Shown here one piece after another: positions 1,830 to 30,150 of a DNA stretch of 35,444 nucleotides; within the stretch, counting starts at the first letter, position 1; each line of letters opens with the position of its first letter. A model generated the notes under the pieces. It did no database searches. It saw nothing but the letters and a program-made list of their open reading frames with translations, and had not been told where the DNA came from. The stretch is taken from the NCBI GenBank assembly GCA_964545405.1, contig CAZJGH010000002.1, positions 1-35,444 on the forward strand. Reading direction: 5' to 3'. Position numbers and translations under genes: made by a program. The DNA is from an uncultured Planctomycetales bacterium (GTDB lineage: Bacteria; Planctomycetota; UBA1135).

Positions 1830-3545
1830 TCACGGCTTGCTTGTCCAAACAACAGCCCCACCGAATAGCGTGATGACCGGTGCGCAGTTGCGCAACTGAT
1901 CTACCGGAACCGTCATGAGGTCGTCGGAAAAGACCACTAGGTCAGCACGGTATCCTGGAGTTAAACGACCGAGGTCGTGTTCACGGAATGCCGCGTAAGC
2001 CGGCCAGGTCGTCAGCATGTCAAGTGCCTCTTGACGCTGGAGCTGCTGCTCTGGATACCATCCACCATCAGGTTCGCCGTCGCGAGTCGCGCGAGTCACC
2101 GCCGCGATGAACAAGGCGACGGAGTCGAGTCGTTCGACCGGAGCGTCGGAACCTCCTGGGATGATGCAGCCTGCATCACGGAAGCTACGCCATGCATACG
2201 CACCGCGAACGCGTTCGGCTCCGAGTCGGTGCTCTGCCCAGGGCATATCACTGGTTTGGTGTTGCGCTTGCATCGCAGGAATAACTCCGAGAGTGGCGAA
2301 GCGTTCGAAATCGTCGGGGTGCACGACTTGTGCATGCTCGATGCGACACCGCAGGTCGAGTCCCGTCTCAGCCGAGCCCCTTGCCCCTAGTGCCTGCTCA
2401 TATACATCCAAGGCGGTCCTGTTACCGCGATCGCCGATGGCGTGAATCGCGACCTGAAAGCCAGCTTCGGCCGCATCCTTGACGATGCCATGCATGTCTT
2501 CCGGAGAAGTCAGCATCAATCCGATGTTGCCGTGGTCGTCGGAATATTCGTCGAGCAAGGCCGCGCCGCGTGAACCAAGAGCACCATCCGCATAGAGCTT
2601 CACTGACCTGATCGCGAGGGTGCCAGTAGCGCCGACGTCGGCTTGCGGGCCAGCTGCGAACCGACGTTCAAGCAGGGATGCATTCGAGCCATCGAGCATC
2701 TCATGCAGGCGCAAGCGTAAACGCCCCTCGGTCGCCATCGATTCGAGCAACGCCAGGGGGCCGGGGCCGATTCCGGCATCATGCACGGCTGTTATGCCTT
2801 GTTCATGCAAGGCCGCAGTAGCCAAACCGACTGCGCGCTCGACCGCCGCCAAAGTGGTTCCTGGCGCGGCGTTGTGTATCAGGCCCTCGGCATTATCGAC
2901 GAACACACCAGTGGGCTCGCCATCCGCATCACGCTCGATGCGGCCGCCTTCGGGATCGGGAGTCGACTTCGTGACGCCCGCAGCATCCATCGCCGCTTGA
3001 TTGGCAAGGATGGCGTGGCCGTCGATGCGCACCAGCACTACCGGACGATCTGGAATCGCGGCACTCAGATCATGATGTGTCGGGAACGACTTCTCTTGCC
3101 AATCATTCTGATCCCAACCGCGCCCCTGAATCCACTCGCCGGCAGGCAACTCCTCATGACGCTGTCGTGCCAACTCGACCACCTGCTGATATGAAGTAGT
3201 ACCGACCAGATCCAGCCCTTCAAGCGCGCTACCCAAACCTACAAGGTGGGCGTGTCCATCGGCGAAGCCTGGATACACCGGGCGCCCCTCCAAGTCGACC
3301 TTGGTCGTACCTTCCGCTGCCAAGGCCAATATCGCATCGCCTTCGCCGACGGCAAGAACGCGTCCATCAAGTATCGCGATGGCTTCGACGATGCGCTGTG
3401 GTTCATCCTGGGTGTATATGCGCCCGTTAAACAGCACCACGTCGGGAGGTGTGTCGGGTGTGGCATCGCCACCGCAGGATCCGAGAGCAGAAGTGAGGAC
3501 AAGCATCAAGAGGGTGCTCTTCAACATGAAGTATGATGGCAGCAT
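1830..3545 (-). CDS. amidohydrolase-3 family metal-dependent hydrolase (YtcJ-like), probable lipoprotein
   Basis: 571-codon ORF ending TGA. It has a GFADGHAHL metal-binding H-x-H motif and later HAIGD and GSDAP motifs. The N-terminus MLKSTLLMLVLTSALGSCGG has an L-G-S-C lipobox, so the true start is probably the ATG at 3525-3527 rather than 3543-3545. Confidence 0.8.
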   Translation of the reverse strand: MLPSYFMLKSTLLMLVLTSALGSCGGDATPDTPPDVVLFNGRIYTQDEPQRIVEAIAILDGRVLAVGEGDAILALAAEGTTKVDLEGRPVYPGFADGHAHLVGLGSALEGLDLVGTTSYQQVVELARQRHEELPAGEWIQGRGWDQNDWQEKSFPTHHDLSAAIPDRPVVLVRIDGHAILANQAAMDAAGVTKSTPDPEGGRIERDADGEPTGVFVDNAEGLIHNAAPGTTLAAVERAVGLATAALHEQGITAVHDAGIGPGPLALLESMATEGRLRLRLHEMLDGSNASLLERRFAAGPQADVGATGTLAIRSVKLYADGALGSRGAALLDEYSDDHGNIGLMLTSPEDMHGIVKDAAEAGFQVAIHAIGDRGNRTALDVYEQALGARGSAETGLDLRCRIEHAQVVHPDDFERFATLGVIPAMQAQHQTSDMPWAEHRLGAERVRGAYAWRSFRDAGCIIPGGSDAPVERLDSVALFIAAVTRATRDGEPDGGWYPEQQLQRQEALDMLTTWPAYAAFREHDLGRLTPGYRADLVVFSDDLMTVPVDQLRNCAPVITLFGGAVVWTSKP

Positions 3546-4737
3546 GTCATCCTTCTCTCAATACCTGTTCGTCGTTGCTGCCCTGGCGGCCACCAGCGTC
3601 ACCGCTGGAGCCCAGGAGCCGATTGAGGAGGCAGTCCCCGCGGCACCGCTCATTCAGCCTGGAGAACGTGCTGTCCCTGCACAGCCTGGAATGCGCGCAG
3701 TACCCGCGATGCCACTCATGCAGCCTGCGCAGACCAATGACGCCAGCGCCATCTCAGCCGATGCCGCGGCTTACGCTGGACTCAAGGCCGAATACGACTA
3801 GGTCTATTCCGCTTGGGTCAGCGAGATCATCGCCCTCGGCAAGCAAGAAGGGTTCGCAGGACCTTACCCGGAGGACCCTACCGGTGGTTTCTACCCAAGG
3901 TTCCGCACGGTTGCAGATACTGGCAACATCGATGCACGACTGTGGTGCCTGAAGAACTTCCACTACGACCCGACTCCGAGCAAGTATCGGAAACTCTGTT
4001 GGCAGGGTGAAGCCTTCAGCTTGGCCACCGCGTTGCGCGATGACGCCGATGGCAGTGCCAGACTGAGGCAGTCACTCCATTCGGGCCGAATGGTCGGCGG
4101 CGACAGGACCGTGGATAAGGTCCTGGTCTATATCCAGGAAACGACGGGGAGTGATGATGTGCGTCGCGCGACGATGGCCGCCCGCAGTGAACCCATGCTT
4201 GATCCGAATACCGAGTCGTTCCATGTAGGTCTCGAATTGGCAGAGGAAGTGATCGCTACTTGGCCAGACAGCGACGAGGCCGCACGCCTTGAAGGTCTGC
4301 TCAATGCACAGGACAACCTGAAGGTCGGTGGGACTCCTGCCGACTTCACTGGCACCGACGTCGATGGCAAGGAGATCAGTCTCTACGACTATCGTGGCAA
4401 GGTGGTGATCGTCGACTTCTGGGGCTTCTGGTGAGGCCCTTGCAAAGGTGAGCTCCCTCACCTCAAGGCGCTGGTCGAGCGCCACTCTGCAGAAGACTTC
4501 GCGATCCTTGGTATCAACACTGACGGAGACAAGGACAAGTTCCGTAAGGACTGTGAGAAGTTCGGTGTGACCTGGGACAACATCTTCAACGGCTCTACGC
4601 GTGGTGGTGTGCCAGGCGCTTGGGGCGTGACCGGATACCCGACCATGTACATCCTCGATCGTGATGGGGTCATCCGCTACATTGATGCTCGTGGGGAACG
4701 CCTGGAGAAGGTCGTCGATGGGCTCGTCGCCGAATAA
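3544..4737 (+). CDS. secreted TlpA/ResA-like thioredoxin-fold thiol:disulfide oxidoreductase. The frame contains an in-frame TAG (3799-3801) and an in-frame TGA (4432-4434) at the first Cys position of CxxC (candidate selenocysteine)
   Basis: One frame reads MSSFSQYLFVVAALAATSVTAGAQEP (signal peptide) ...LKAEYD-TAG-VYSAWVSEIIALGKQ...GKVVIVDFWGFW-TGA-GPCKGELPHLKAL...ILGINTDGD...GYPTMYILDRDGVIRYIDARG... up to TAA 4735-4737. No ATG/GTG/TTG lies in frame between 3802 and 4020, although that stretch has coding-like GC3. The ORF-track pieces are 3301-3801 and 4021-4434. Confidence 0.65.
4438..4468 (+). promoter_or_regulatory. stem-loop immediately 3' of the in-frame TGA; candidate bacterial SECIS element
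   Basis: CCTTG-caaa-GGTGAG-ctcc-CTCACC-t-CAAGG. That is a 6 bp perfect upper stem (4447-4452 / 4457-4462) and a 5 bp lower stem (4438-4442 / 4464-4468). The apical loop lies about 20 nt after the TGA. The CUCC loop lacks the G usual in bSECIS loops. Confidence 0.4.
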
Positions 4738-4924
4738 GAGGGGCTCCTTCCTCGTGAACGGTGTGATCGCCGCGGTTGTCCTGTTCTACGTCCTGCGCTT
4801 GAGTGCTGGCGACCGTCACCTGATCGACTGGATCGTGATCGCCCTAGTAAGTAGCGCGATCCTCTACAACGTGGTCAAGTTCGGCATGGCCCTTCAAGGC
4901 GCGGGCACCAGCGAAGAAGAGTAG
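4718..4924 (+). CDS. small two-helix membrane protein, hypothetical
   Basis: ATG 4718 gives MGSSPNKRGSFLVNGVIAAVVLFYVLRL...WIVIALVSSAILYNVV... with two hydrophobic spans and strong GC3 bias. It overlaps the 3' end of the TlpA-like gene by 20 nt and ends at TAG 4922-4924. Confidence 0.45.
   Translation: MGSSPNKRGSFLVNGVIAAVVLFYVLRLSAGDRHLIDWIVIALVSSAILYNVVKFGMALQGAGTSEEE

Positions 4925-14210: not shown

Positions 14211-14221
<11 letters not shown>
13694..14221 (+). CDS. lptE: LPS-assembly lipoprotein LptE-like
   Basis: Signal peptide with lipobox LLLLIAACFASC followed by GYRMV (compare CGFHLRG in LptE). About 175 aa. The ATG overlaps the upstream TGA (TGATG). Confidence 0.45.
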
Positions 14222-16523
<2,302 letters not shown>

Positions 16524-16536
16524 TAGACTGCCTCCC

Positions 16537-17655
16537 ATGGTGAAGCCGTGGGAGCTGCCTTGGGCCGATGCGCCACACCAAGCGATACCGCTTGATGGTG
16601 GCACGTGGCGTGGACCAGCGCCATTGAGTTCGATATGCCAAGGCGCGTTGGCGTCGATGGGAGTCAGGTTTCTCGGTTCACTCGCCGACGCTTCCGCCCA
16701 CTATCGACTCGATCGCGCTGCCGAACTCAGCACCGACATCGAATACGGCGACCTCGAGAACCCGGCCTACCGCTCCGGATGGATTGCCGCGCGGTTGGCT
16801 TCCGGTCACCGCGCGATGTCCCACCCACCTGCGGCACCCAAGCTGATGGGCATCCTCAACCTGAGCACGGATTCATTTTCCGATGGCCAGGTTGCCCTTG
16901 GTTCAGGATTCGACGTCCTTTATCGAGCCCAGTGCCTGCTGGCCGAGCAAGCTGACATCCTCGACCTCGGCGCGGAAAGCACTCGGCCAGGGGCGGCAGC
17001 CGTGCCTGATGAGCAACAGTTGGCTCCCCTACTCCCGGCGATCGAACAGCTCCTCCAGCTTGGCGTACCGATCTCCATCGACACTCGCAGTGCCGTCGTC
17101 GCGGCAGCCTGCTTGGATGCTGGTGCCCACATGATCAACGATGTCAGCGGCTTCAGCGATCCAGACATGGCGCCACTGATCGCCGCACGCCAATGCCGAG
17201 CTTTCGCGATGCACATGCGTGGCACTCCTGAGGACATGCAGGACCATTGCAACTACCGCTTCATGCTAGGTGAGATTGCCGACGACCTTATGGGCATCGC
17301 CTGCCGAGCCTTCGACTCCGGCATCGAATACCGACAACTGGCCCTGGACCCTGGGATCGGATTCTCGAAGACCGCAAGCCAATGCCGTGAACTGATCGCC
17401 AACCTCGGGTCACTACGAGCGCTGGGCCTACCGTTATTGGCCGGTCCATCACGCAAGTCCTTCATGTCCGACCTGCTGCCACATTGCCGACCTGACCAGC
17501 GTGATGGCGGCTCAGCTGGAGCAGCGGCGCTGTGTGCCGCCCAAGGTGCCAGCTTCATTCGTCTTCATCGCGGCGGCAGTTCCTGGGATGCCGTACGGGT
17601 CGCTGCAGCTTGCGCTTTCCCAAGCAATCACCCTGAGGAAGTCCTGCACACATGA
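16537..17655 (+). CDS. folP: dihydropteroate synthase with an N-terminal extension of ~100 aa
   Basis: Pterin-binding domain motifs GILNLSTDSFSDG, ILDLGAESTRPG, ISIDT, INDVSG and DPGIGF. The first ATG downstream of the ftsH stop is 16537. An alternative start MSHPP... lies about 95 codons later. Confidence 0.85.
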   Translation: MVKPWELPWADAPHQAIPLDGGTWRGPAPLSSICQGALASMGVRFLGSLADASAHYRLDRAAELSTDIEYGDLENPAYRSGWIAARLASGHRAMSHPPAAPKLMGILNLSTDSFSDGQVALGSGFDVLYRAQCLLAEQADILDLGAESTRPGAAAVPDEQQLAPLLPAIEQLLQLGVPISIDTRSAVVAAACLDAGAHMINDVSGFSDPDMAPLIAARQCRAFAMHMRGTPEDMQDHCNYRFMLGEIADDLMGIACRAFDSGIEYRQLALDPGIGFSKTASQCRELIANLGSLRALGLPLLAGPSRKSFMSDLLPHCRPDQRDGGSAGAAALCAAQGASFIRLHRGGSSWDAVRVAAACAFPSNHPEEVLHT

Positions 17656-18470
17656 GTATGTTCACGCTCACAGACGCCATCGAGATCATCCTCTTGGCGG
17701 TCGCTATCTACGGGATTTTGCGTTTCATCCGCAGCACACGGGGAGTTGGCGTGCTGCGTGGATTGTTCACCTTCACCATAGCCTTGGTGATGATGATCTG
17801 GCTGCTCGACAAGTTCGCTCCAGGCGGTGTCGACGCGATCAAGTACATCATGGATGCCGTGATCCCGTACTTCGCATTGATCATCGTGATCCTGTTCCAG
17901 GAGGAACTGCGCCATGGCATCAGTCGTTTCGGCCACAGCGGACTCTTGAGGTTGGGTGGCAACACCGCTGAATCGCCGACTGAGTTGGCGAAGATAGCTA
18001 CTTCGGCGAAGCGCCTCGCCAACCAAAGAGTCGGTGCCCTGATCGCCTTCCAACGGAACGTGTCGCTTAAGCCTTTCAGCGAAGGGGCCGTCGGCCTTGA
18101 CCTGCCCATCACTTCCATCCTCATGGAAACGATCTTCTTCCCTGGCGGGCCGCTTCACGATGGCGGCTTGGTGGTGAAGGGTAAACGGATCACCGCTGCT
18201 AGTTGCGTGTTCCCATTGACAGCCAACCCTGACATCGCCAGGCGCTTGGGCACCCGTCACCGAGCTGCACTCGGGCTATCCGAGAGGACCGATGCCGTGA
18301 TCCTGGTGGTCAGCGAAGAGACCGGTGAGATCTCGCTGGCCGCGGATGGCGTTCTGCACAAGCCGATTCCACAGGACATGCTGGAGAAACGCCTCAGTGA
18401 GCTATTGAAGACAGAATCGAAGATAACCGCCGAGGATCACGAGACCGTCAGCGTGGAGATGGGCGCATGA
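17652..18470 (+). CDS. cdaA: diadenylate cyclase CdaA (DisA_N / DAC domain, three N-terminal TM helices)
   Basis: DAC motifs GALIAF, LHDGGLVV, GTRHRAALGLSE and VVSEETGEISLA. ATGA overlaps with both folP and the downstream gene. Confidence 0.9.
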   Translation: MSMFTLTDAIEIILLAVAIYGILRFIRSTRGVGVLRGLFTFTIALVMMIWLLDKFAPGGVDAIKYIMDAVIPYFALIIVILFQEELRHGISRFGHSGLLRLGGNTAESPTELAKIATSAKRLANQRVGALIAFQRNVSLKPFSEGAVGLDLPITSILMETIFFPGGPLHDGGLVVKGKRITAASCVFPLTANPDIARRLGTRHRAALGLSERTDAVILVVSEETGEISLAADGVLHKPIPQDMLEKRLSELLKTESKITAEDHETVSVEMGA

Positions 18471-19615
18471 GACAAGCCATCGAATTCCTCATCAACGATT
18501 GGCGCCGCAAACTGGTCGCACTGGCCATCGGGTTCGCGCTTTGGTCATGGATCGAAGGACGCATCGCTGTCGAGCGCGAAGTCATCCTTAGCGTCGCCTC
18601 GACCTCAGAAGACATCGGCACCCCAGCCGACTTCGAGCTGTTGATCCAGGCCCCAGATGGATGGGTGCTCACCGAACCGATGATCGGCCAACCGATCACG
18701 GTGTGGTTGAACGGTTCAGAATCAGAGTTGCAGAGCTTCGCCACCCGCCAGTGCGCAGCAAGCCTCAAGGTGGATTTCTCAGCGCCACCGGCTACCCAGG
18801 TATCGGTGACGATCCCGATCGGCCCGGAAGAGCTCGACTGGTTGCGCCCACGCGACGCGGAGCTGTTGCTCAAGAACGTCCCCGAAGACAAGAAGTACCT
18901 CAAGGAGCTGGTATTCCAGCGGGTCAAGTCCGAGACCATCCAGTTGTCGTCACGTGACATAGACTTGATCGGGCAACCATCTGATGCATGGATGGTCAAG
19001 CGGGACGAACTCCGCTTCGAACCCAATACGGTCACGATTACCGGTCCTCAACGCGCCGTCACCAGGCTGCGGATGAGGATTGACGCTGCCAAAGCCGATC
19101 CCACCGGCGATCCGTCGAGACTCCTCAACACGTTCGAGATTCCTGGTGGCACGCGGACCAACGTCAATCGGATGCAGTCACTCCACCTGGATCTGCAGCG
19201 CGAAGGCATCCGGATGGATCCACCAGTAGTGAAGGTCTTCGCTGACATTCGGATGCGCAATCCCGTCAGCCTCACCCTCAACCGCGCTTTCGACGACCTC
19301 CACATCCTGCCGGCGACCGACATGTCCGCCTGGAGCCGCGGCTCATGGGAACCGCAACCCTGGGTCGTCGAGATGCCTGATGTCGAAGGCGACGACGAGG
19401 TCATCAACGAGAAATGGATTACCGATCACGTGATCCTGGTCCTGCCGCTGCACCTGCTAGACACCACGCTCGCCACCGAGCTCAACGTTCGGATCGAGCC
19501 GCACATCTTCGGGTTCGAGTCGGAAGAGAAGCAGAGGTTCTACGAACAGCACCTGATAATCCGACCACAGACCCCCGGTGGCGACCTAATCCCGTATAGC
19601 AAGTCCAATGAGTAA
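18467..19615 (+). CDS. cdaR: YbbR-domain protein, CdaA regulator (CdaR)-like
   Basis: N-terminal TM (KLVALAIGFALWSWI) followed by a beta-rich repeated body. Sits in the conserved position between cdaA and glmM. Start/stop overlaps on both sides. Confidence 0.55.
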   Translation: MRQAIEFLINDWRRKLVALAIGFALWSWIEGRIAVEREVILSVASTSEDIGTPADFELLIQAPDGWVLTEPMIGQPITVWLNGSESELQSFATRQCAASLKVDFSAPPATQVSVTIPIGPEELDWLRPRDAELLLKNVPEDKKYLKELVFQRVKSETIQLSSRDIDLIGQPSDAWMVKRDELRFEPNTVTITGPQRAVTRLRMRIDAAKADPTGDPSRLLNTFEIPGGTRTNVNRMQSLHLDLQREGIRMDPPVVKVFADIRMRNPVSLTLNRAFDDLHILPATDMSAWSRGSWEPQPWVVEMPDVEGDDEVINEKWITDHVILVLPLHLLDTTLATELNVRIEPHIFGFESEEKQRFYEQHLIIRPQTPGGDLIPYSKSNE

Positions 19616-20978
19616 CCCGCGATTATTCGGCACCGATGGCATGCGTGGCAAGGCAGGTATCTACCCGCTGGTTCCGGAGCTGCTGGAACGCCTCGGCTTC
19701 GTGTTAGCCACTCGAATCCATGTCGACGACCCCGACATGCGCGATGTTCGACACCGCGTCCTCATCGGTCACGATGGACGCGAAAGCGGTGAGACCCTGG
19801 TTGCAGCGATCGCCGCTGGGCTCACTCGTGGCGGTATCGATGTGGATGTGGTTGGGCTCGCCCCTACCCCGTGCATCGCTTACCTCACCTTCTCCGGTCC
19901 CTATCAGGCTGGCATCGTCATTTCTGCTTCACATAATCCCGCTGACGACAACGGGGTGAAACTATTGGGTCGCAATGGCACCAAGCTGGCTGACGCCCTT
20001 GAGGAAGAACTCGAGTCGGCACTTCTGCATGATGAGGAACTGGCTGACGCTAAGCATCAGGGAGAAATCTCAAGACGCAAGAACCTGGTCGCTGATTACA
20101 TCGATTGGTTGAGAGGAGAGGCTTTCCCTGATCTCGACCTCAGCGGCACTCGAGTACTTATTGATTGTGCCAACGGCGCTGCCTCCGAGCTTGCCCCGCG
20201 TGTCCTGAAGGCCTTCGGGGCCGAGTCCGTCCTTATCCATGACCACCCTGATGGCCGCAACATCAACGCCGACTGCGGAGCCTTGCACCCTGAAGTCGCC
20301 GCCGCAGCTATTGCTGGCAGTGGTTGCGACTTAGGCCTCAGTCTAGATGGCGACGCTGATCGTGGCATGCTGTGCGACAGTACCGGTCGCATCCTCGATG
20401 GCGACGCGATCCTGGCCGGCTTAGGCGAATCCATGTGCCGCAATGGAGAGTTGAAGGACAACACGGTCGTTGCCACAGTGATGAGCAACTTAGCCCTGGA
20501 ACAGCGATTGACGGCGGCAGGAGGCACTTTGTTGCGTGCTGCAGTGGGCGATCGCTACGTCGCAGCGATGATGCGTGAGGGTGACTTCCAGCTCGGCGGC
20601 GAGAAGTCAGGGCACATCCTCTTCGGAGATGATCACGGCTTCCGCGGCGACGGGATCTATACCCTGCTGCGTGTCCTTCAGGTCATCAATCGTGATGGTC
20701 TTAAACCTGAGGAGTTCGCTGGCGGCTACGAGGACCTGCCTCAGAAGCTCGTCAACCTTCCCGTGACCTGCCGCAAATCTCTCGATGATATGCCACATCT
20801 ATCGGCTGCCTGCGCGGCCGTCGATGCTGAGTTGGGCGAACGTGGCCGCACTGTGGTCCGATTCTCGGGAACCGAACTGCGCCTGCGCTTGATGGTCGAG
20901 GCCACCTCAATCGACTTGGTCGACACCGCCCTCGAACAACTCGAGGCAGCCGTGCAGCAAGAGAACATCCTGGCTTAA
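19608..20978 (+). CDS. glmM: phosphoglucosamine mutase
   Basis: FGTDGMRG N-terminus, active-site SASHNPADDNG, DGDADR metal loop and GGEKSGH. 456 codons. Ends TAA. Confidence 0.95.
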   Translation: MSNPRLFGTDGMRGKAGIYPLVPELLERLGFVLATRIHVDDPDMRDVRHRVLIGHDGRESGETLVAAIAAGLTRGGIDVDVVGLAPTPCIAYLTFSGPYQAGIVISASHNPADDNGVKLLGRNGTKLADALEEELESALLHDEELADAKHQGEISRRKNLVADYIDWLRGEAFPDLDLSGTRVLIDCANGAASELAPRVLKAFGAESVLIHDHPDGRNINADCGALHPEVAAAAIAGSGCDLGLSLDGDADRGMLCDSTGRILDGDAILAGLGESMCRNGELKDNTVVATVMSNLALEQRLTAAGGTLLRAAVGDRYVAAMMREGDFQLGGEKSGHILFGDDHGFRGDGIYTLLRVLQVINRDGLKPEEFAGGYEDLPQKLVNLPVTCRKSLDDMPHLSAACAAVDAELGERGRTVVRFSGTELRLRLMVEATSIDLVDTALEQLEAAVQQENILA

Positions 20979-20981
20979 GTC

Positions 20982-21623
20982 ATGTCGAAACTCGTGCTCG
21001 CATTCGAACTTTCGGGCAAGATCTGCACCGCATCACTTGGCACCGATGCCGACCTCGTGGAGCATGATTTCAGTGTAACGCGTGGCCGGGGATTGATCGA
21101 GGCAACCGACAAGCTGGTCGATATCGCGGGCGCCTCTCGGAAGAACATTGGTGCCCTAGTCGTAGGTGTCGGCCCTGGTTCCTACACGGGATTGCGCATC
21201 GCCTGCAGTGCCGCGACAGCGTTGGCCATGGCCCTCGATATCCCAGCGATCGGCATCAACTCCTTCGAGGCAGCCGCCTTCGCTCGGGACCTCGATGGTC
21301 CTCTTCACATCCTGTTGGATGCATATCGCAATGAGGTATACCACGCCTGCTTCGAGCGCCAAGGCGATACGCTACTGACCCATCAAGAGGCTCAAGTGGT
21401 CAGCCGTGAAGACGCCGCTGCGGCAGTCGGACAGGGACAATCGTTTTTGGGCGATTCGCGGTTTGCAGGGCCCGGAAGCCATCTAATCGGCAATTCTGAC
21501 ACGACCTCCAGTGCCCTATTGCGGCTCGCGTTCGCGCGAGGATTGAATACTGACGGCAGCGGAATGAAGCCAGCCCTACCAGCGACTCCGCTTTACTTGC
21601 GGCCTGCGGCTTTCAAGCCTTGA
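20982..21623 (+). CDS. tsaB: tRNA threonylcarbamoyladenosine (t6A) biosynthesis protein TsaB (YeaZ)
   Basis: VGVGPGSYTGLRIACSAATALA is the TsaB/YeaZ signature. 213 codons. Ends TGA. Confidence 0.75.
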   Translation: MSKLVLAFELSGKICTASLGTDADLVEHDFSVTRGRGLIEATDKLVDIAGASRKNIGALVVGVGPGSYTGLRIACSAATALAMALDIPAIGINSFEAAAFARDLDGPLHILLDAYRNEVYHACFERQGDTLLTHQEAQVVSREDAAAAVGQGQSFLGDSRFAGPGSHLIGNSDTTSSALLRLAFARGLNTDGSGMKPALPATPLYLRPAAFKP

Positions 21624-21693: not shown

Positions 21694-22011
21694 TTACAGA
21701 TCCTGTGGACGCAGAGTCTTGCGGCCGTTCTTGGTTGGGCGGTTGTCAGCAGCCTTGATTGGATCGCGTACGTATGCGTCGAGTGCGCCGTAGAAGTCGC
21801 CGGAAACGTTGCACTTGGCAACAGCGTTCTTGGTGCGGCTCTTGGAAATGATCAGCTCAGTGATCTTGGCCTTCTTGGACTTGCCCTTCTTGGCGCCTTT
21901 CTTGGCAGCCTTCTTAGGAGCGGCCTTCTTCTTAGTGGCCTTCTTCTTAGGAGCAGCCTTCTTGGTGGCCTTCTTGGTTACTTTCTTAGCAGCTTTCTTT
22001 TTGGCAGCCAT
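21694..22011 (-). CDS. histone-fold DNA-binding protein (bacterial alpha3-truncated / DUF1931-like fold) with ~45-aa Lys/Ala-rich H1-like N-terminal tail
   Basis: The ATG at 22009-22011 gives MAAKKKAAKKVTKKATKKAAPKKKATKKKAAPKKAAKKGAKKGKSKKAK, then ITELIISKSRTKNAVAKCNVSGDFYGALDAYVRDPIKAADNRPTKNGRKTLRPQDL and TAA. The NGRKT-x4-DL end matches the histone L2/alpha3 signature GRKT(I/V)xxxD(I/L). The rest of the 443-aa ORF (to 23025) is antisense shadow. Confidence 0.7.
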   Translation of the reverse strand: MAAKKKAAKKVTKKATKKAAPKKKATKKKAAPKKAAKKGAKKGKSKKAKITELIISKSRTKNAVAKCNVSGDFYGALDAYVRDPIKAADNRPTKNGRKTLRPQDL

Positions 22012-22103
22012 GATGTTTTTGTGGTTTGATGTTGGCGTTTCCGCAAGAGGCGGAAACGGAGGAAAGTGGTGAAAGAACGGCGTATTCGCCATTCCCTGCG
22101 CGG

Positions 22104-22188: not shown

Positions 22189-23304
22189 GTGATTATCCAC
22201 GCCACCCTCCTCATTGCCATTCTCCAGGGCAGTGCTGAACTCCCACAGGACCAACAAGAAGTGGTCTTGTCGGAGCAGGACCAGAATATTCTGCGACGTT
22301 TCGACTCCCTGCCGGAAGAAGAACAGCAACGAATCGCCATCGAGCTGCAGGAAGCAGTTCTCGAGTTGGAACATCCGCTGTGCGATGCCGCGCGGTCCTT
22401 GCTCAATGACCGCAAATTGCGTAATGCAGAGCAACAGCGCAAGGGCGACCTGCAGGTCTACTCGCCACAGGAATATGCGCCGAAGTTGAAGCTTCGCACC
22501 AAGACCCTGAAGCCCACCAGCAAGACCTGGAAGACCTTCGAGAAACGATATTTTCGCAATGGTCTCGCTGACCGGAGCGCTTCCTGGGACTGGGATTACG
22601 GGCGCAATCTGCTGCTTAAGCCTGGAATTCGACAGCCGAGGGATGTCGTCATCGATTTCCTGGCAGGCCGCTGGCCACAAGATGGCAAGGTCGCTGCCTA
22701 TGCCGAAGGTGCCCTTGACCGTGACAAGGACATGGATGCAGCAGCTGATTATTTCGCCCATGCCTACCGGGACAGGGATGGCAAGGTCTACCAACAGATA
22801 CCTCTTTATGAGATCTGGAATGCGCAGACGACCTTCGGCATCTCCGATGTCGAATCCATCGCATTCATGCGCAATGTCGCCGATGACGACCGTTATGTAT
22901 CGCCGATTCCCGGCAAGTTCCATGACCGCATCTACGCTCAGATCGAGGAACGATTCGAGATCTACCGCGACTATCGGAGCCTGCGCTTCGCGATCGCACA
23001 GAGGTTCGTCGCACCCACCGGCCAACTACCTGTGCAGTTTCGAGGAATCAGCGAGACCATCGACAAGGCTTGGGTGCTGATGGAACACAAGCCACGGCGC
23101 ATGGCTGCATTCCTCGAACGCCATCCGACTCGCAAGCTTTTCCTGTCAGCCCTCGCCGAGGAGATGCCAGCAAAGGGCAAGGAAGGTGAGCTCGCCCACT
23201 GGGCCGAACACCAGGAAGCCCGCGCCACGCTGCCAGGCATCATGCGCGGTGCAGCGCTTGAGTTCCTCGCCGACGAGGGGCTGCTTGGTTTCCGGCGTAG
23301 ATAG
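22189..23304 (+). CDS. hypothetical protein, 371 aa, no family recognised
   Basis: GTG start. Strong GC3 bias in this frame, unlike the overlapping minus-strand ORF. Balanced composition with W/Y-rich motifs (SWDWDYGRN, DYFAHAYRDRDGKVY). Ends at TAG 23302-23304. Confidence 0.6.
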   Translation: MIIHATLLIAILQGSAELPQDQQEVVLSEQDQNILRRFDSLPEEEQQRIAIELQEAVLELEHPLCDAARSLLNDRKLRNAEQQRKGDLQVYSPQEYAPKLKLRTKTLKPTSKTWKTFEKRYFRNGLADRSASWDWDYGRNLLLKPGIRQPRDVVIDFLAGRWPQDGKVAAYAEGALDRDKDMDAAADYFAHAYRDRDGKVYQQIPLYEIWNAQTTFGISDVESIAFMRNVADDDRYVSPIPGKFHDRIYAQIEERFEIYRDYRSLRFAIAQRFVAPTGQLPVQFRGISETIDKAWVLMEHKPRRMAAFLERHPTRKLFLSALAEEMPAKGKEGELAHWAEHQEARATLPGIMRGAALEFLADEGLLGFRRR

Positions 23305-23319
23305 GTTTACCCTGGAGCC

Positions 23320-24486
23320 TTGGATTCACAACACCGCGCCTGGGCGGAGATCGATCTCGGAGCTTTCCGCCGTAACCTCAAGCGGGTCCGCTTGCAGGCC
23401 GGAAAGGCTTCGGTCTGGCCGGTACTGAAGGCCAACGCCTACGGCCATGGGGCGGTCGCCATCGCCCGTACCTGCGCGGAAGAAGGGGTCGAACGTTTAG
23501 GGGTCGGTGATAGCAGTGAAGCAATGCAACTGCGTTACAGCGGCGTAGATCTGCCCTTGCTCGTGCTTGGAACCGTGATCGACGCTGAAGTTCCCTACCT
23601 TCTTGAGCATGAGGTTGAAGTTGGGGTCCATTCGGAAAGCCGGGTCCACAAGCTGGGAACCTTGGCGCGTGAACACGGCAAGGTACTAGGTGTGCACTTG
23701 AAGGTCGATACAGGTCTCGGAAGGCTTGGTGTACGACCTGAAGCTGTTCTCAGGGTCGCGCGTGCGATCGCTGCCGAACCTGGCCTGCAGTTACGTGGGT
23801 TGATGACCCATTTCGCCAACAGCCAAGGGGCACGCAGTGGCTACACCGATGGCCAGCAGGCATTGTTCCTGGCAGCTGCAGCTGAAGTCAGCGATGCACT
23901 CGGTCAACGCCCGACCCTGCATTGTTCAAACTCAGCCGCATTGTTCACCGGGCTACACCCGGTCGGCGACGCTGTGCGCCCAGGGATATCCTTGTTTGGG
24001 ATTCAGCCGCAGGATATCGGCGGCGACGCTGGTCTAGAGCCGGTGTTGTAGCTTCGCACCCAGATCGTCTTCATCAAGGACGTACCGACCGGCACTCCGA
24101 TCGGCTACGACGGGAGATGGACTTCGCATCTGCCCACCACTCGCGTGGCAACCCTTCCGATTGGCTACAACGATGGCGTGCCTTATCGGATCGGCTTGGG
24201 CGGCAACGGCCAGGTATTGGTACGCGGACAAAGATGTCCGTTGATCGGGGCTGTTTCGATGGACTATTGCACCGTCGACATCTCTCATGTCACTGACGCC
24301 GACATCGGCGACGTCGTGACCCTGATCGGAGCGGATGGGCGCGAGCGCCTTAGCGCCTGCGATGTGGCTCGTGTCGCTGGCACTATCCCATACGAGATCA
24401 CCTGCCGCCTAGGATCCCGCGTGAAGCGCTGTTATCTGGAAGAAAGTCCCAACCGCACCTCGCCTTCACCCGTCATTCCAACATGA
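23320..24486 (+). CDS. alr: alanine racemase interrupted by one in-frame TAG at 24049-24051; a pseudogene under code 11 unless TAG is read through
   Basis: The N-terminal barrel carries WAEIDLGAF and the PLP-lysine motif VLKANAYGHGA. After LEPVL-TAG the same frame continues LRTQIVFIKDVPTGTPIGYDGRW...ATLPIGYNDGVPYR...GAVSMDY, which is the C-terminal beta domain. TTG start. The TGA overlaps the next ATG (ATGA). Confidence 0.8.
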
Positions 24487-27400
24487 AGTTCAGGCTGCCG
24501 CGGAGCTTGGTAGGACGCTTATCAGTGCTGTTTTGTGCGCTGCTGAGCATCAGTGCCTTCGTACCGCTGCCACTGCCGCTGGGCTTGGTGAACCAAGCGA
24601 TAGCCCTGCGCGCACCCGAGTTAAGCCTGCAAGCCTCCGCTGCCCACATCACTTGGGGCCGCGGGCTGGTCAGCTTGGTGGACTTGCGCCTGGCGCATGA
24701 GGATTCCGATCGAGCAAGGGTCGATCGCCTGGATCTCGCCCTTGACCTGTGGCCGGCCAGCTCGGCATTCGGCAGACCTATTCGGCTACAGATAAACGAA
24801 GCTGAAGGGTCTCTCGATCAAACCGTGGTCGATTCCCTGCTCAAGTTGGGTTCCGATGATTCCTCGCCCTTCCCACTGGCGATTGAAGTGACTGACTCAT
24901 CGTTGCGCTGGACAGATTCCGGCAATAACGATTATCTGATCACTGACGTCCGGGCTTATGGACATATGTCACCCGATGGAGCGCGCGTCGAGGTGCACGG
25001 CAACTGCCAACTTCCAGCGATCGGTGGCTTTGAAGTACGCGGCAGTGCGGGCGTTGGCCTACACGATTGGGTGATCGACATCCAAGCCGATGCGGTCCTT
25101 GTCAGTGATTGGCAGGGATTTCAACTAGCCCTGCCCGATGATGTGGAGAACCTCGATTGGAATGGCGGTCGATTTGATTTCCGCGCGGTGGCCAACGGTC
25201 ACGATCTCGAACTTAAGGATGTGGTCGTCGATGGCACGGCGAGCTTGGCGCGTTTCGTGGTGGAACAACCACGCCTCCATGTGAGTGATGTCGAAGTCGC
25301 CTTCAATGGCAGCCTGACCAGCGGCCTACGCTGCCGAGTGAAAGGGGCTGAGCAGCATTCCGGCTTCGCGATGGAGATCGAGACCACTCTAGATGATGAT
25401 CTCAAGCCGAACATCGAGGTTAGCGCCGCTTCGACTGATGTAGAGGTAGATGCGGAAACACTGGTGTGGCTGACTGAGCTCTTGCCCAATGTCGGTGAGA
25501 TCGTCACGGCGCTCGAACCACGCGGATTCCCCTTCGCGGCATTCGACTGTTCGTGGAGTCAGGCCGATGGTTTCGATTGGTGCCTCTTGGTGGAACCGAA
25601 TGGCATCAATGTCACCTATCGCGGCATCCTCGACGATGAAGGACAGCGCTTCTCCTTCCCCTACCCAGCAACTGATTGCATGGGTAGCGTTGTCGCCAGT
25701 AGCGATGGGGTCTTGTTCCATGGGCAAGCCGTGATCGGCGGTAGCGGCAGTGCCAACGCTGTCGGGATCATCGATTTCCGCGAACCCAGCTTCCTGGACA
25801 TCGACATCAAGGCGCGCGAGGTCCCCTTGGATCAGCGTGTGTCCCATGCGATCACTGGTAACCCTGTAATCGCCAACCTGTGGCGAGAGCTCGGCTCCCC
25901 AGACCAGGGCCTTGCTGATGCCGATGTCGAGATTCGTTACGTCGGGGATGAGTTCCTCATTCGTGTCGCTGGCAACGCCGCGGACATTTCCGTACTGCCA
26001 TCTATCTTGCCGATCCGCGCCGACGTCGACCACGCTTGGTTCGATTGGGTTCCTGGTAAGGCCCGCTTCGGTGCCAGCATGCACGCACTCGGCGGTGGCA
26101 TTTGGGTCGACGGAAGTGCCCACGATGTCGTCAACCGTGATGTACCTGAGATCCGCCTCACCCTGCGTGGACGCGGATTCGACGCCACCCACTCTGAACT
26201 CCGCATCCTCGAATCCTACCTGCCACTGCCGCAAGGCCTATCCGAGTTCGAGTTGTCTGGTGACGTCTTCTACGACCTGCACCTGGTGAAGCCTTTGGAT
26301 GAGACCAGTCCTGCCCACATCTCAGGACAACTCGTCACGGAAGGGGCGAACTTGAGGTGGCCAGCGCTCGGGCTTGATTTCATCCACCTCTACTCTCGCG
26401 CGGGATTCGCCGGCCATGGGGCAGATATGCAGATCGGAGTGGCCCGGTCCTGGTCGCAAGTAGACGGCGGAACCGTCAACGGCAGCCTGATGATGACCAG
26501 TGCTGGTGCCAACTCGAAGGCGGTCGCGGAGGGCCGCCAGCTGAGATTGAGCAACGACTTGTTGTCCAACTTGCAGGACCTCAGTGGTCAGAAGCCGTGG
26601 GGACGGCATCTCGAATGGCAGGGATCGGTGAACATGCTTGCCGAGGTGGATCCTTTCCAACCCACAGTCATCGAATCACACATGGACTTCCACCCGTTGG
26701 TTGTTCGTGCCCCTGGCATGGTCGAAGACGTGACCTTTGAGATCGGTGGGAGGATCGAGATCGGCGGAGAGATGACTCCGAACGGCAGTAACTTCCCCTT
26801 CTTCAACGCCAATGCCATCACCCTGACAGGAGCTGGCGTCGACTTGTCAGTGCAAGACCTCAGTGCTTTCTTCGATGACACCGGCTTGCAGGTAGAAGCC
26901 GTGTGTGGCTCTTCCGCCGGCATTGAACTGTCATCGCGATTGCCGCAACTTGTCGACGAGGAGACCATGCTGGCCCTTGAGGAGATCGGCCTCGGTGGCA
27001 TGGTGCGGCCAAACAACCTGCAAGTACTCGCGACCCTCCCCTACGATGACCCGATGCATTTCAGGGCGAATGGTGGCCTCATCATGGAGGACGTCACCCT
27101 AGCTGCTGGGGCAAGTCCGCTTACCAATGGCTATGCGGAGATCGAGGTGCGAGATGCTCGGTGGAATGGTGCCCAAGATTTTGCCGCTGAGCTTGAGTTC
27201 AGCAACGGTAGCGCCAAGGTAGGTGGCCTTGCCATGGAACATGCCAATGCACACGTCGACGTCAACCCGGACAGGGTCATTTGGACCGACGTCAACGCGG
27301 AGATGCTCGGTGGACGCCTGCACACCAACGGCAGCGACGCCGATGGCACTGAAGTGAGCGGCTTATTCCGCCTCGACTTCGATCCGAGTGCGCCGATGCA

Positions 27401-27989
27401 GGCGAATTACTTCGTCACTGGTATGCAACTGGAGCGGATGCGTGACGAACTTGGTCTCGGCGGACCTCTGGCTGGAGTCGTCAGCGGCTTCGTCGACGTC
27501 ACCCTGCCCTCGACCTCCCCTACCTTCGCCTCTGGACGCGGTTGGTTCCACATCAATGGCGGTGCCCTCGGGACAGTTCCGGTATTGAAGACCATCTGGC
27601 GTGTTGCCGGGATCAGTCCTCCGATTTTCGATGAAGGTGATGTCGCATTCCGCCTCAATGGTCAGGGCCGACTTTATGTCGATGAGTTCTCACTGCAGCA
27701 CCCGCTCCTGAGGGTGACCGGCGAAGGCTCGATGGACATGGATACCCGGCTGCGCTTGAAGGTTACATTGCGCACCTTCGGCTTCGTCGGACGACTTCCG
27801 ATCCTCAAGGACCTAATCGACCTGCTCATCGAGCAGCAGGTCTACGGCCCGGCCGAAGCACCAATCATCACCCACCGCGCTGGCGGCAAGTTGTTCGGCG
27901 ATGATTTCGCGCCTCCGCCATTCCCGTTGTGGGTGCCAGGCGGACCACAACCTGATTGGCGAATATCACCAATCTTCCCGGTGGAGTAA
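24483..27989 (+). CDS. AsmA-family / TamB-like large envelope protein (N-terminal membrane anchor, long beta-rich body)
   Basis: 1168 codons. N-terminal TM LSVLFCALLSISAFVPLPL. The C-terminal segment FHINGGALG...FRLNGQGRLYVDEFSLQHPLLRVTGEGSMDMDTRLRLKVTL resembles the AsmA_2 C-terminal region (memory only). Confidence 0.5.
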   Translation: MKFRLPRSLVGRLSVLFCALLSISAFVPLPLPLGLVNQAIALRAPELSLQASAAHITWGRGLVSLVDLRLAHEDSDRARVDRLDLALDLWPASSAFGRPIRLQINEAEGSLDQTVVDSLLKLGSDDSSPFPLAIEVTDSSLRWTDSGNNDYLITDVRAYGHMSPDGARVEVHGNCQLPAIGGFEVRGSAGVGLHDWVIDIQADAVLVSDWQGFQLALPDDVENLDWNGGRFDFRAVANGHDLELKDVVVDGTASLARFVVEQPRLHVSDVEVAFNGSLTSGLRCRVKGAEQHSGFAMEIETTLDDDLKPNIEVSAASTDVEVDAETLVWLTELLPNVGEIVTALEPRGFPFAAFDCSWSQADGFDWCLLVEPNGINVTYRGILDDEGQRFSFPYPATDCMGSVVASSDGVLFHGQAVIGGSGSANAVGIIDFREPSFLDIDIKAREVPLDQRVSHAITGNPVIANLWRELGSPDQGLADADVEIRYVGDEFLIRVAGNAADISVLPSILPIRADVDHAWFDWVPGKARFGASMHALGGGIWVDGSAHDVVNRDVPEIRLTLRGRGFDATHSELRILESYLPLPQGLSEFELSGDVFYDLHLVKPLDETSPAHISGQLVTEGANLRWPALGLDFIHLYSRAGFAGHGADMQIGVARSWSQVDGGTVNGSLMMTSAGANSKAVAEGRQLRLSNDLLSNLQDLSGQKPWGRHLEWQGSVNMLAEVDPFQPTVIESHMDFHPLVVRAPGMVEDVTFEIGGRIEIGGEMTPNGSNFPFFNANAITLTGAGVDLSVQDLSAFFDDTGLQVEAVCGSSAGIELSSRLPQLVDEETMLALEEIGLGGMVRPNNLQVLATLPYDDPMHFRANGGLIMEDVTLAAGASPLTNGYAEIEVRDARWNGAQDFAAELEFSNGSAKVGGLAMEHANAHVDVNPDRVIWTDVNAEMLGGRLHTNGSDADGTEVSGLFRLDFDPSAPMQANYFVTGMQLERMRDELGLGGPLAGVVSGFVDVTLPSTSPTFASGRGWFHINGGALGTVPVLKTIWRVAGISPPIFDEGDVAFRLNGQGRLYVDEFSLQHPLLRVTGEGSMDMDTRLRLKVTLRTFGFVGRLPILKDLIDLLIEQQVYGPAEAPIITHRAGGKLFGDDFAPPPFPLWVPGGPQPDWRISPIFPVE

Positions 27990-29620: not shown

Positions 29621-29985
29621 TGAGTGTCGTCTGGGCGGCCGCGGGTGGTTTCGTGCCACACGAGGAAAGTCCGGGCTCCATAGGGCGCGATGGTGGCTAA
29701 CTGCCACCGAAGGAAACTTCAGGGAAAGTGCCACAGAAAGCAAACCGCCTAAGCGTTTCGGCGCCGGTAAGGGTGAAAGGGTGAGGTAAGAGCTCACCGC
29801 GCGCTTGGTGACAAGCGTGGCAGGGTAAACCCCATCTGGAGAAAGTTCATGTAGGGAGGATAGGTGCGGCCCGCATCGCTTGAACCTCCGGGTAGAACGT
29901 TCGAGGCCTGTGGCAACGCAGGCCCTAGAGAAATGGTCGCTGCCTTTTCGAAGGTACAAGATCCGGCTTATAGGACGACACTCAC
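29621..29985 (+). ncRNA. rnpB: RNase P RNA, bacterial type A
   Basis: P1 pairing GAGTGTCGTC (29622-29631) with GACGACACTC (29975-29984). Universal P4 strands GAGGAAAGTCCGGGCTCC (29662-29679) and ACAAGATCCGGCTTATAGG. Also ACAGAAAGCAAACCGCC, GGTAAGGGTGAAAGGGTGAGGTAAGAGCTCACC and GGGTAAACCCCA. TACAAT at 29610-29615 is a possible -10 element, and a T5 run follows the 3' end. Confidence 0.95.
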
Positions 29986-30150
29986 TTTTTCTCCGACAGA
30001 CGCGGCAACTATTGCATCAGCCTAAGCCACTCGCGTTGACCATCAACATGACACCACAATATCTTGTGCCCAAAATGCAGTCCTAGTTTTCAACAATTCC
30101 CCAACATCTGGTAGTTTTCACTTGCCAGAATCCCAAATATCGGCAGAATC

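Follow-up and report, generated by a model that had tools for sequence, protein, structure and literature searches.

How an alanine racemase is built is well described. Enzymes of the Alr/DadX family belong to PLP fold-type III, and the solved members (1SFT and 1BD0 from Geobacillus, and 4Y2W) join an N-terminal barrel that holds the PLP lysine to a C-terminal beta domain that holds a catalytic tyrosine. A fold-type III barrel may also stand alone, as YggS/PLPBP is a single-domain PLP-binding protein. Moreover, an in-frame stop codon may be decoded in a programmed fashion, by pyrrolysine insertion, by suppressor tRNAs, or by leaky termination, and bacterial ribosomes typically pass a stop spontaneously in fewer than 1% of cases. 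Here, we analyze a stretch of 35,444 nucleotides from an uncultured Planctomycetales bacterium, hereafter the window, in which a gene for alanine racemase (alr) is interrupted by an in-frame TAG. The encoded protein resembles the solved enzymes in having both domains, the PLP lysine, the catalytic Tyr, and a length of 388 amino acids, and it differs in that codon 244 is TAG rather than Ser in this contig, while sibling contigs encode a normal enzyme. A first-pass annotation of the window offered amber readthrough or suppression, a very recent nonsense pseudogene, or a consensus or population-variant error as possible explanations. We find that the TAG is truly in the sequence, yet as biology it is most likely unreal and is at most a rare dead allele. 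An assembly, consensus, or read error is the explanation that we favor, with a probability of roughly 0.62, and the TAG is almost certainly not a programmed feature of the species.

Results

The alr frame runs from a TTG at 23320 to the TGA at 24484-24486, and the TAG at 24049-24051 is its sole interruption (Table 1). Neither a frameshift nor a second stop was found inside the gene (23320-24486). Residues 1 to 243 match Ala_racemase_N (PF01168) over positions 1 to 220 of the 220 in the Pfam model (E = 2.7e-63), the 144 codons 3' of the TAG match Ala_racemase_C (PF00842) over positions 4 to 127 of 127 (E = 1.8e-40), and the TAG falls between the two domains. Both the frame and the Pfam matches therefore bear out the original description of a gene split between its domains and free of any other lesion. 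The joined protein aligns over its full length with solved alanine racemases (E of ~1e-55). Within that alignment, K37 in the motif VLKANAYGHG corresponds to Lys39, the PLP lysine of the Geobacillus enzyme (1SFT/1BD0), and lies 5' of the TAG; Y263 aligns to Tyr265 of the same enzyme, the second catalytic residue, and lies 3' of it. Both residues are invariant across 21 aligned sequences. Two records derive from the NCBI contig of 35444 bp, a 243-aa product (23320-24048) and a 113-aa product (24145-24486), and when a protein search with the C-terminal half of alr looked for fragments spanning codon 244, its sole match was the 113-aa call of the window itself.

The immediate surroundings of the TAG and of the alr terminus are also as first described. 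Immediately 3' of the TAG stands a C, and the next gene opens with an ATG at 24483 that forms the overlap ATGA (24483-24486) with the alr TGA. The overlap had been taken to indicate translational coupling that would need ribosomes to reach the alr 3' end. The anatomy of that argument stands, but the same overlap of the downstream ATG and the alr TGA is found in contigs with intact alr, and the argument applies equally to the intact allele.

Table 1. Coordinates of the features under discussion within the window
Feature	Coordinates	Strand	Comment
TlpA-like thioredoxin-fold gene	3526-4737	+	In-frame TGA 4432-4434; in-frame TAG 3799-3801
Second window-private patch	21732..21762	- (in gene 21694-22092)	4 differences in 31 nt vs L001
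Upstream gene	22189..23304	+	371 aa, no Pfam match; TAG end 15 nt before alr start, same frame
alr (alanine racemase)	23320..24486	+	388 codons including TAG; Pfam and alignment
N-terminal PLP-binding barrel (Ala_racemase_N)	23320..24048	+	Holds PLP lysine K37; 243 aa
alr difference patch	24036..24054	+	All 3 differences of window alr vs L001, L002, L004, and L005
In-frame TAG	24049..24051	+	Codon 244; TCG (Ser244) in relatives; C>A at 24050
C-terminal beta domain (Ala_racemase_C)	24052..24483	+	Holds catalytic Tyr263 (24106-24108)
Downstream gene	24483..27989	+	1168 aa; weak YhdP/AsmA-like match below Pfam cut-off

What codon 244 encodes in other assemblies of the same population is a serine. 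Four contigs, from JGI 3300009008 (L001), JGI 3300008954 (L002), and the ENA assemblies of SAMN10231914 (L004) and SAMN10231912 (L005), are 99.87 to 99.92% identical to the window over 2.3 to 10.1 kb. At positions 24036/24050/24054 all four read C/C/G where the window reads A/A/T, and codon 244 is TCG (Ser) in each of these four other metagenome assemblies. Thus, the single uninterrupted frame characteristic of Alr, broken in the window at codon 244, is present in L001, L002, L004, and L005. The same four contigs are matched by a degenerate 54-nt pattern that spans all three variant sites; the pattern had no match in a metagenome DNA collection, which evidently lacks these samples. The literature likewise gave no match to the identifiers of the samples and contigs. 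The first-pass annotation had held that a sense codon in sister sequences would indicate an assembly or strain error, and TCG is what the sister sequences carry. Of its several explanations, a consensus or population-variant error is the one to which these four contigs lend weight.

More distant relatives agree. A protein search with alr returned a 388-aa product that was 99% identical, followed by a graded series of planctomycete orthologues, and the 90%-identity cluster of the closest match contains three full-length proteins with Ser together with the window's own 243-aa fragment. Ser occupies the column of codon 244 in 1SFT (FSLHS) and in 20 of 20 aligned orthologues from planctomycetes, which agrees with the small residue named for this column in the first-pass annotation. 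The motif was located in 22 relatives, and codon 244 is tabulated there as TCG in 10, TCC in 7, AGC in 3, and GCG in 2; Ser encoded by TCG, TCC, or AGC is also given as 18 of 22. None of the 22 relatives has a stop codon at the site, and alr is intact in every relative examined. A scan of a genome collection with the alr protein turned up no conspecific genome; its best matches were metagenome-assembled genomes (MAGs) 84% and 82% identical (Ust_12 and Arabian9_MAG_16).

The TAG does not differ from its relatives alone. The window has A for C at 24036 (Leu, synonymous), A for C at 24050 (Ser to stop), and T for G at 24054 (Leu, synonymous), and these three are the sole differences in the 1167 nt of alr; nothing else differs in the 2293 nt that L004 has in common with the window. 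Three of three random differences would fall within 19 nt with a chance of ~2e-4. Moreover, all three changes are A/C or G/T exchanges. On the HiSeq, A/C and G/T are the two commonest classes of miscall (29.2% and 26.8%), both dyes of each pair are read on one laser, and densely packed substitution errors occur in low-quality read tails (~6.5%) (PMC3334598). The exchange pattern is compatible with miscalls, if the present data came from such a platform, and does not prove them.

Several other sources of clustered change were rejected. 8-Oxoguanine damage on one template strand is ruled out by the mixed polarity of the changes (C>A, C>A, and G>T), and mutagenesis by a diversity-generating retroelement (DGR) is ruled out since C/G positions, not A, are altered. 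Clustering of the kind left by a cytosine deaminase is unconvincing, with a TC context at 4 of 7 sites. Finally, import of a divergent allele would need a donor that itself had the stop, and no relative has one.

The truncated 243-aa product is encoded by one other contig only, a 1161-bp scaffold (L003) from the ENA assembly of SAMN10231913. L003 is identical to positions 22908-24068 of the window and ends 14 nt past the last variant, with the patch inside its last 33 nt. Contigs of the organism in that assembly are 1.1 to 3.1 kb long, and neighboring contigs overlap by 11 nt (L092/L086) and 20 nt (L098/L003), which suggests gaps in coverage at which the end of a contig is the end of a read. 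If so, the end of L003 may be the sort of spot where a poor read tail would leave mismatches, judging from the contigs. The A/A/T haplotype is therefore present in two assemblies, the window and L003, that were possibly built from the same reads.

The window contig carries error-like patches, and alr is not the only gene affected. On the minus strand at 21694-22092, four differences from L001 at 21732, 21738, 21745, and 21762 lie within 31 nt, a clustering with a chance of ~1.5e-6. Their combined effect on a Lys-rich nucleoid-type protein is A111P, E116D, A119P, and E121K, all in its conserved C-terminal domain, and two prolines are thereby put into a conserved helix. More than 20 planctomycete genomes keep the pattern VR.AI..AE.RA..NGRKTLRP in this region, and L001 and L098 keep the A, E, and A too. 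L098, which comes from SAMN10231913, shows none of the four changes of the second patch, and its base at 22250 is also the normal one. The second patch consists of one C>T and three C>G changes, unlike the A/C and G/T pattern expected of miscalls. Two further differences are private to the window, at 22250 (D for A) and at 2808 (L for F), neither being found in other contigs. The second patch and the differences at 22250 and 2808 look like consensus errors of this contig.

The gene that holds the second patch deserves a brief description of its own. Its 132-aa product combines a middle part that is rich in Lys and Ala and resembles histone H1 with a highly conserved C-terminal domain (…IISKSRTK…NVSGDFY…AE.RA..NGRKTLRPQDL). 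Among the planctomycete loci that were fetched around alr, at least 22 have this gene close to it, and no Pfam match for the protein is on record in the precomputed gene tables.

How often a stop might arise in such a contig by accident can be estimated. The window has 9 private differences in 19.6 kb of comparable sequence, or 4.6e-4 per nt, and 3.1% of the possible coding substitutions in the window create a stop. The expected number of chance nonsense codons for a contig of this size is ~0.44, and the probability of at least one is ~0.36. We conclude that a stray stop in a contig of this size is unremarkable. Contigs of the population from other assemblies (L001, L002, L005, L087, L091, L098, and L099) each have private differences too, about 1 per 1 to 3 kb relative to the window. 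These are mostly transversions and are mostly nonsynonymous where translated; in L091, two of them adjoin at 4768-4769. The pattern suggests low coverage of the organism, and a slightly noisy consensus for it, in every one of these metagenomes.

Whether the patch could instead be genuine must be weighed with more care. The TAG might be a real and very recent nonsense allele of a strain or subpopulation in one sample (SAMN10231913), and we regard this as doubtful but as the alternative to be taken most seriously. The product of such an allele is predicted to be a 243-aa barrel without racemase activity, as Tyr263 is missing, and its carriers would either be on the way out or obtain D-alanine from another enzyme or from neighboring cells. 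No second racemase was found within the 35-kb window. The occurrence of the haplotype in both the window and L003 speaks for a real allele, and two assemblies with the same three bases mean that at least one read has them. With many assemblers, a k-mer that occurs a single time is discarded, and this would speak for two or more supporting reads. Were the window's sample to differ from that of L003, the A/A/T haplotype would be in two samples and would be real. Moreover, the window alr has no decay besides the patch, as befits a very young mutation, and the two changes linked to the stop are synonymous and yield codons that relatives use (CTA in L007; CTT in L017 and L018). The latter is slightly more like natural variation than like error, and by our own estimate it would arise under random error with a chance of ~0.16. 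Finally, the window has other gene lesions that are apparently real, and real decay is thus not far-fetched: a TAG in a TlpA-like gene, found in seven other contigs, and a frameshift in a hydrolase gene, found also in L087, make this a species with two lesions in every covering contig.

Against a real allele stand the form of the patch and its setting. Three linked transversions in 19 nt, in a gene otherwise identical, would be unusual for point mutation between near-clonal strains, and a recombination donor would encounter the difficulty of the stop given above. The one other contig to carry the TAG comes to an end just beyond it, the second damaging patch is absent from the same sample's own assembly, and alr is unbroken in all relatives. 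We infer that the patch is technical and not a real rare allele. Of the earlier proposal of a recent nonsense pseudogene, what survives is an allele private to one sample.

Within the window, TAG serves as an ordinary stop codon. It terminates 7 of the 25 other scored genes, with domain matches that run to the protein ends, and for three of the seven TAG-ended genes the frame leads on into the gene that follows; the one immediately 5' of alr is among these three. Efficient or general suppression of TAG would therefore fuse unrelated proteins, and the TAG that ends 22189-23304 is a working terminator adjoining alr. Global reassignment of TAG is ruled out by this usage. The tRNA scan found no tRNA gene in the window and no CUA anticodon in the 15 loci scanned. 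Moreover, the 91 nt from the alr TAG onward fold no better than shuffled sequences (z = +0.41), and the only Rfam match in the window is RNase P RNA.

Translation through the alr TAG is thus highly improbable, whether it relied on an amber-suppressing tRNA or on near-cognate decoding in the weak TAG-C context, either of which would yield full-length Alr and carry ribosomes to the ATGA; the same judgment covers the variant in which the species tolerates amber codons in general. The fourth base C, the intact domain downstream, and the coupled next gene are what readthrough would predict, and a second in-frame TAG, at 3799 in the TlpA-like gene, occurs in all covering contigs and has conserved residues on both sides. 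A stop that is missing from the four near-identical contigs and from all orthologues, however, is hard to reconcile with readthrough, as are the routine use of TAG as a terminator, the lack of a stimulatory structure downstream, and the result of the tRNA scan. The suggestion of amber readthrough or suppression in the first-pass annotation fails on these grounds.

That the barrel and the beta domain are made as two polypeptides that assemble into a racemase is scarcely credible: both Pfam domains are complete and the 243-aa and 113-aa pieces are recorded separately, but no relative is split at this point, and the lack of any in-frame ATG, GTG, or TTG between the TAG and a GTG at 24145 nearly refutes the idea, as a piece restarted there would be without residues 245 to 275. 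Tyr263 is among the residues lost, since it lies between the TAG and that first restart. Thus, the observation that both halves keep their catalytic motifs was correct, but the halves cannot work apart.

The TlpA-like gene has two in-frame stops that differ in character. Its TGA falls exactly at the first Cys of a CxxC motif (VVIVDFWGFW-TGA-GPCKGELPHL). All of the 12 closest homologues are annotated as proteins that stop after DFWGFW, and L094 continues past its TGA with an identical GPCKGELPHL. A 7-bp hairpin at 4446-4463 begins 11 nt after the TGA, with a fold z score of only -1.66. The TGA is probably a selenocysteine codon in a UxxC protein. The TAG at 3799-3801 (…LKAEYD-TAG-VYSAWV…) is followed five codons later by an invariant Trp, and a start codon is absent from the 73 codons after it. 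It is present in 7 of 7 other contigs that cover the site (L087 to L093), from seven assemblies, and orthologues have sense residues in its column, mostly Ala (GCG in L094). Either the gene is a pseudogene population-wide or the TAG is read through, and this stop is more deserving of follow-up than that of alr. A capacity for amber suppression in this marine planctomycete, whereby the alr TAG would be a real allele kept viable, TAG 3799 would be read through, and UAG and a UGA for selenocysteine would share one mRNA, is to our minds a slimmer prospect still than readthrough at alr.

Other features of the window were also recorded. An alpha/beta-hydrolase gene at 210-1417, on the minus strand, is a single 402-aa open reading frame in L094 and is here divided into parts of 183 and 219 aa by a 1-nt frameshift near 885-889 (…TEG|TIGAKA* vs. 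…SEGLDWCEAM…). The frameshift is probably real, as L087 is identical across the site. An RNase P RNA of class A lies at 29623-29986 on the plus strand and is full length (298 bits; E = 7e-97). A conserved run on the plus strand at 14211-21623 encodes FtsH, FolP (Pterin_bind), a CdaA-like diadenylate cyclase, a 382-aa protein without a Pfam match, a phosphoglucosamine-mutase-like protein with PGM_PMM domains I to IV, and a TsaB-like protein. The order of cyclase, unassigned gene, and mutase presumably resembles that of the cdaA-cdaR-glmM operon of Firmicutes. An exact look-up of a 571-aa amidohydrolase open reading frame found nothing on record; the start call differs.

Discussion

Why a gene for a two-domain enzyme should contain a stop codon is most simply answered by the contigs themselves. 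The alr TAG is private and part of a cluster, other assemblies have a sense codon in its place, the contig has a second bad patch, and this DNA uses TAG as a normal stop. If the patch is an error, as we favor, then the alr of the species would be ordinary and intact, with Ser (TCG) at codon 244, and the 19-nt patch would have entered the consensus from a poor read, or from a few, where coverage of one metagenome sample was thin. Readthrough, suppression, or a split enzyme would have no part in expression of the gene, and the ribosome would pass a Ser codon on its way to the ATGA junction. Two features expected of consensus error are found here, as the changes are clustered and private to one dataset and a further error-like patch occurs in the contig.

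The TAG is of little consequence for alr and is best treated as a contig flaw or a rare dead allele. For MAG contigs from thinly covered populations, however, there is a practical lesson, namely that an in-frame stop should first be checked against near-identical contigs of sibling samples, and recoding proposed only afterward. The same comparison of contigs singled out TAG 3799 as the stop that survives.

How the locus relates to known systems depends on which part of it is considered. The truncated 243-aa product would, like YggS/PLPBP, be a lone barrel with a PLP lysine and would lack the second catalytic base. It is no YggS orthologue, however, as it is 100% identical to residues 1 to 243 of the full-length Alr of the sibling contigs. 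Programmed amber decoding, by any of the three routes named at the outset, shares with alr an in-frame TAG followed by a part that looks functional; the alr TAG differs in that the stop is not conserved, no machinery is in sight, TAG is a common terminator, and no signal lies downstream. Consensus error in a low-coverage metagenome, of the kind left by poor Illumina tails, is another likeness. The second patch departs from that model in its substitution pattern, and coverage and base quality are deduced here from the contigs. The alr patch itself resembles such errors in being private, clustered, made of A/C and G/T exchanges, situated 15 to 33 nt from the end of L003, and accompanied by a second patch in the same contig.
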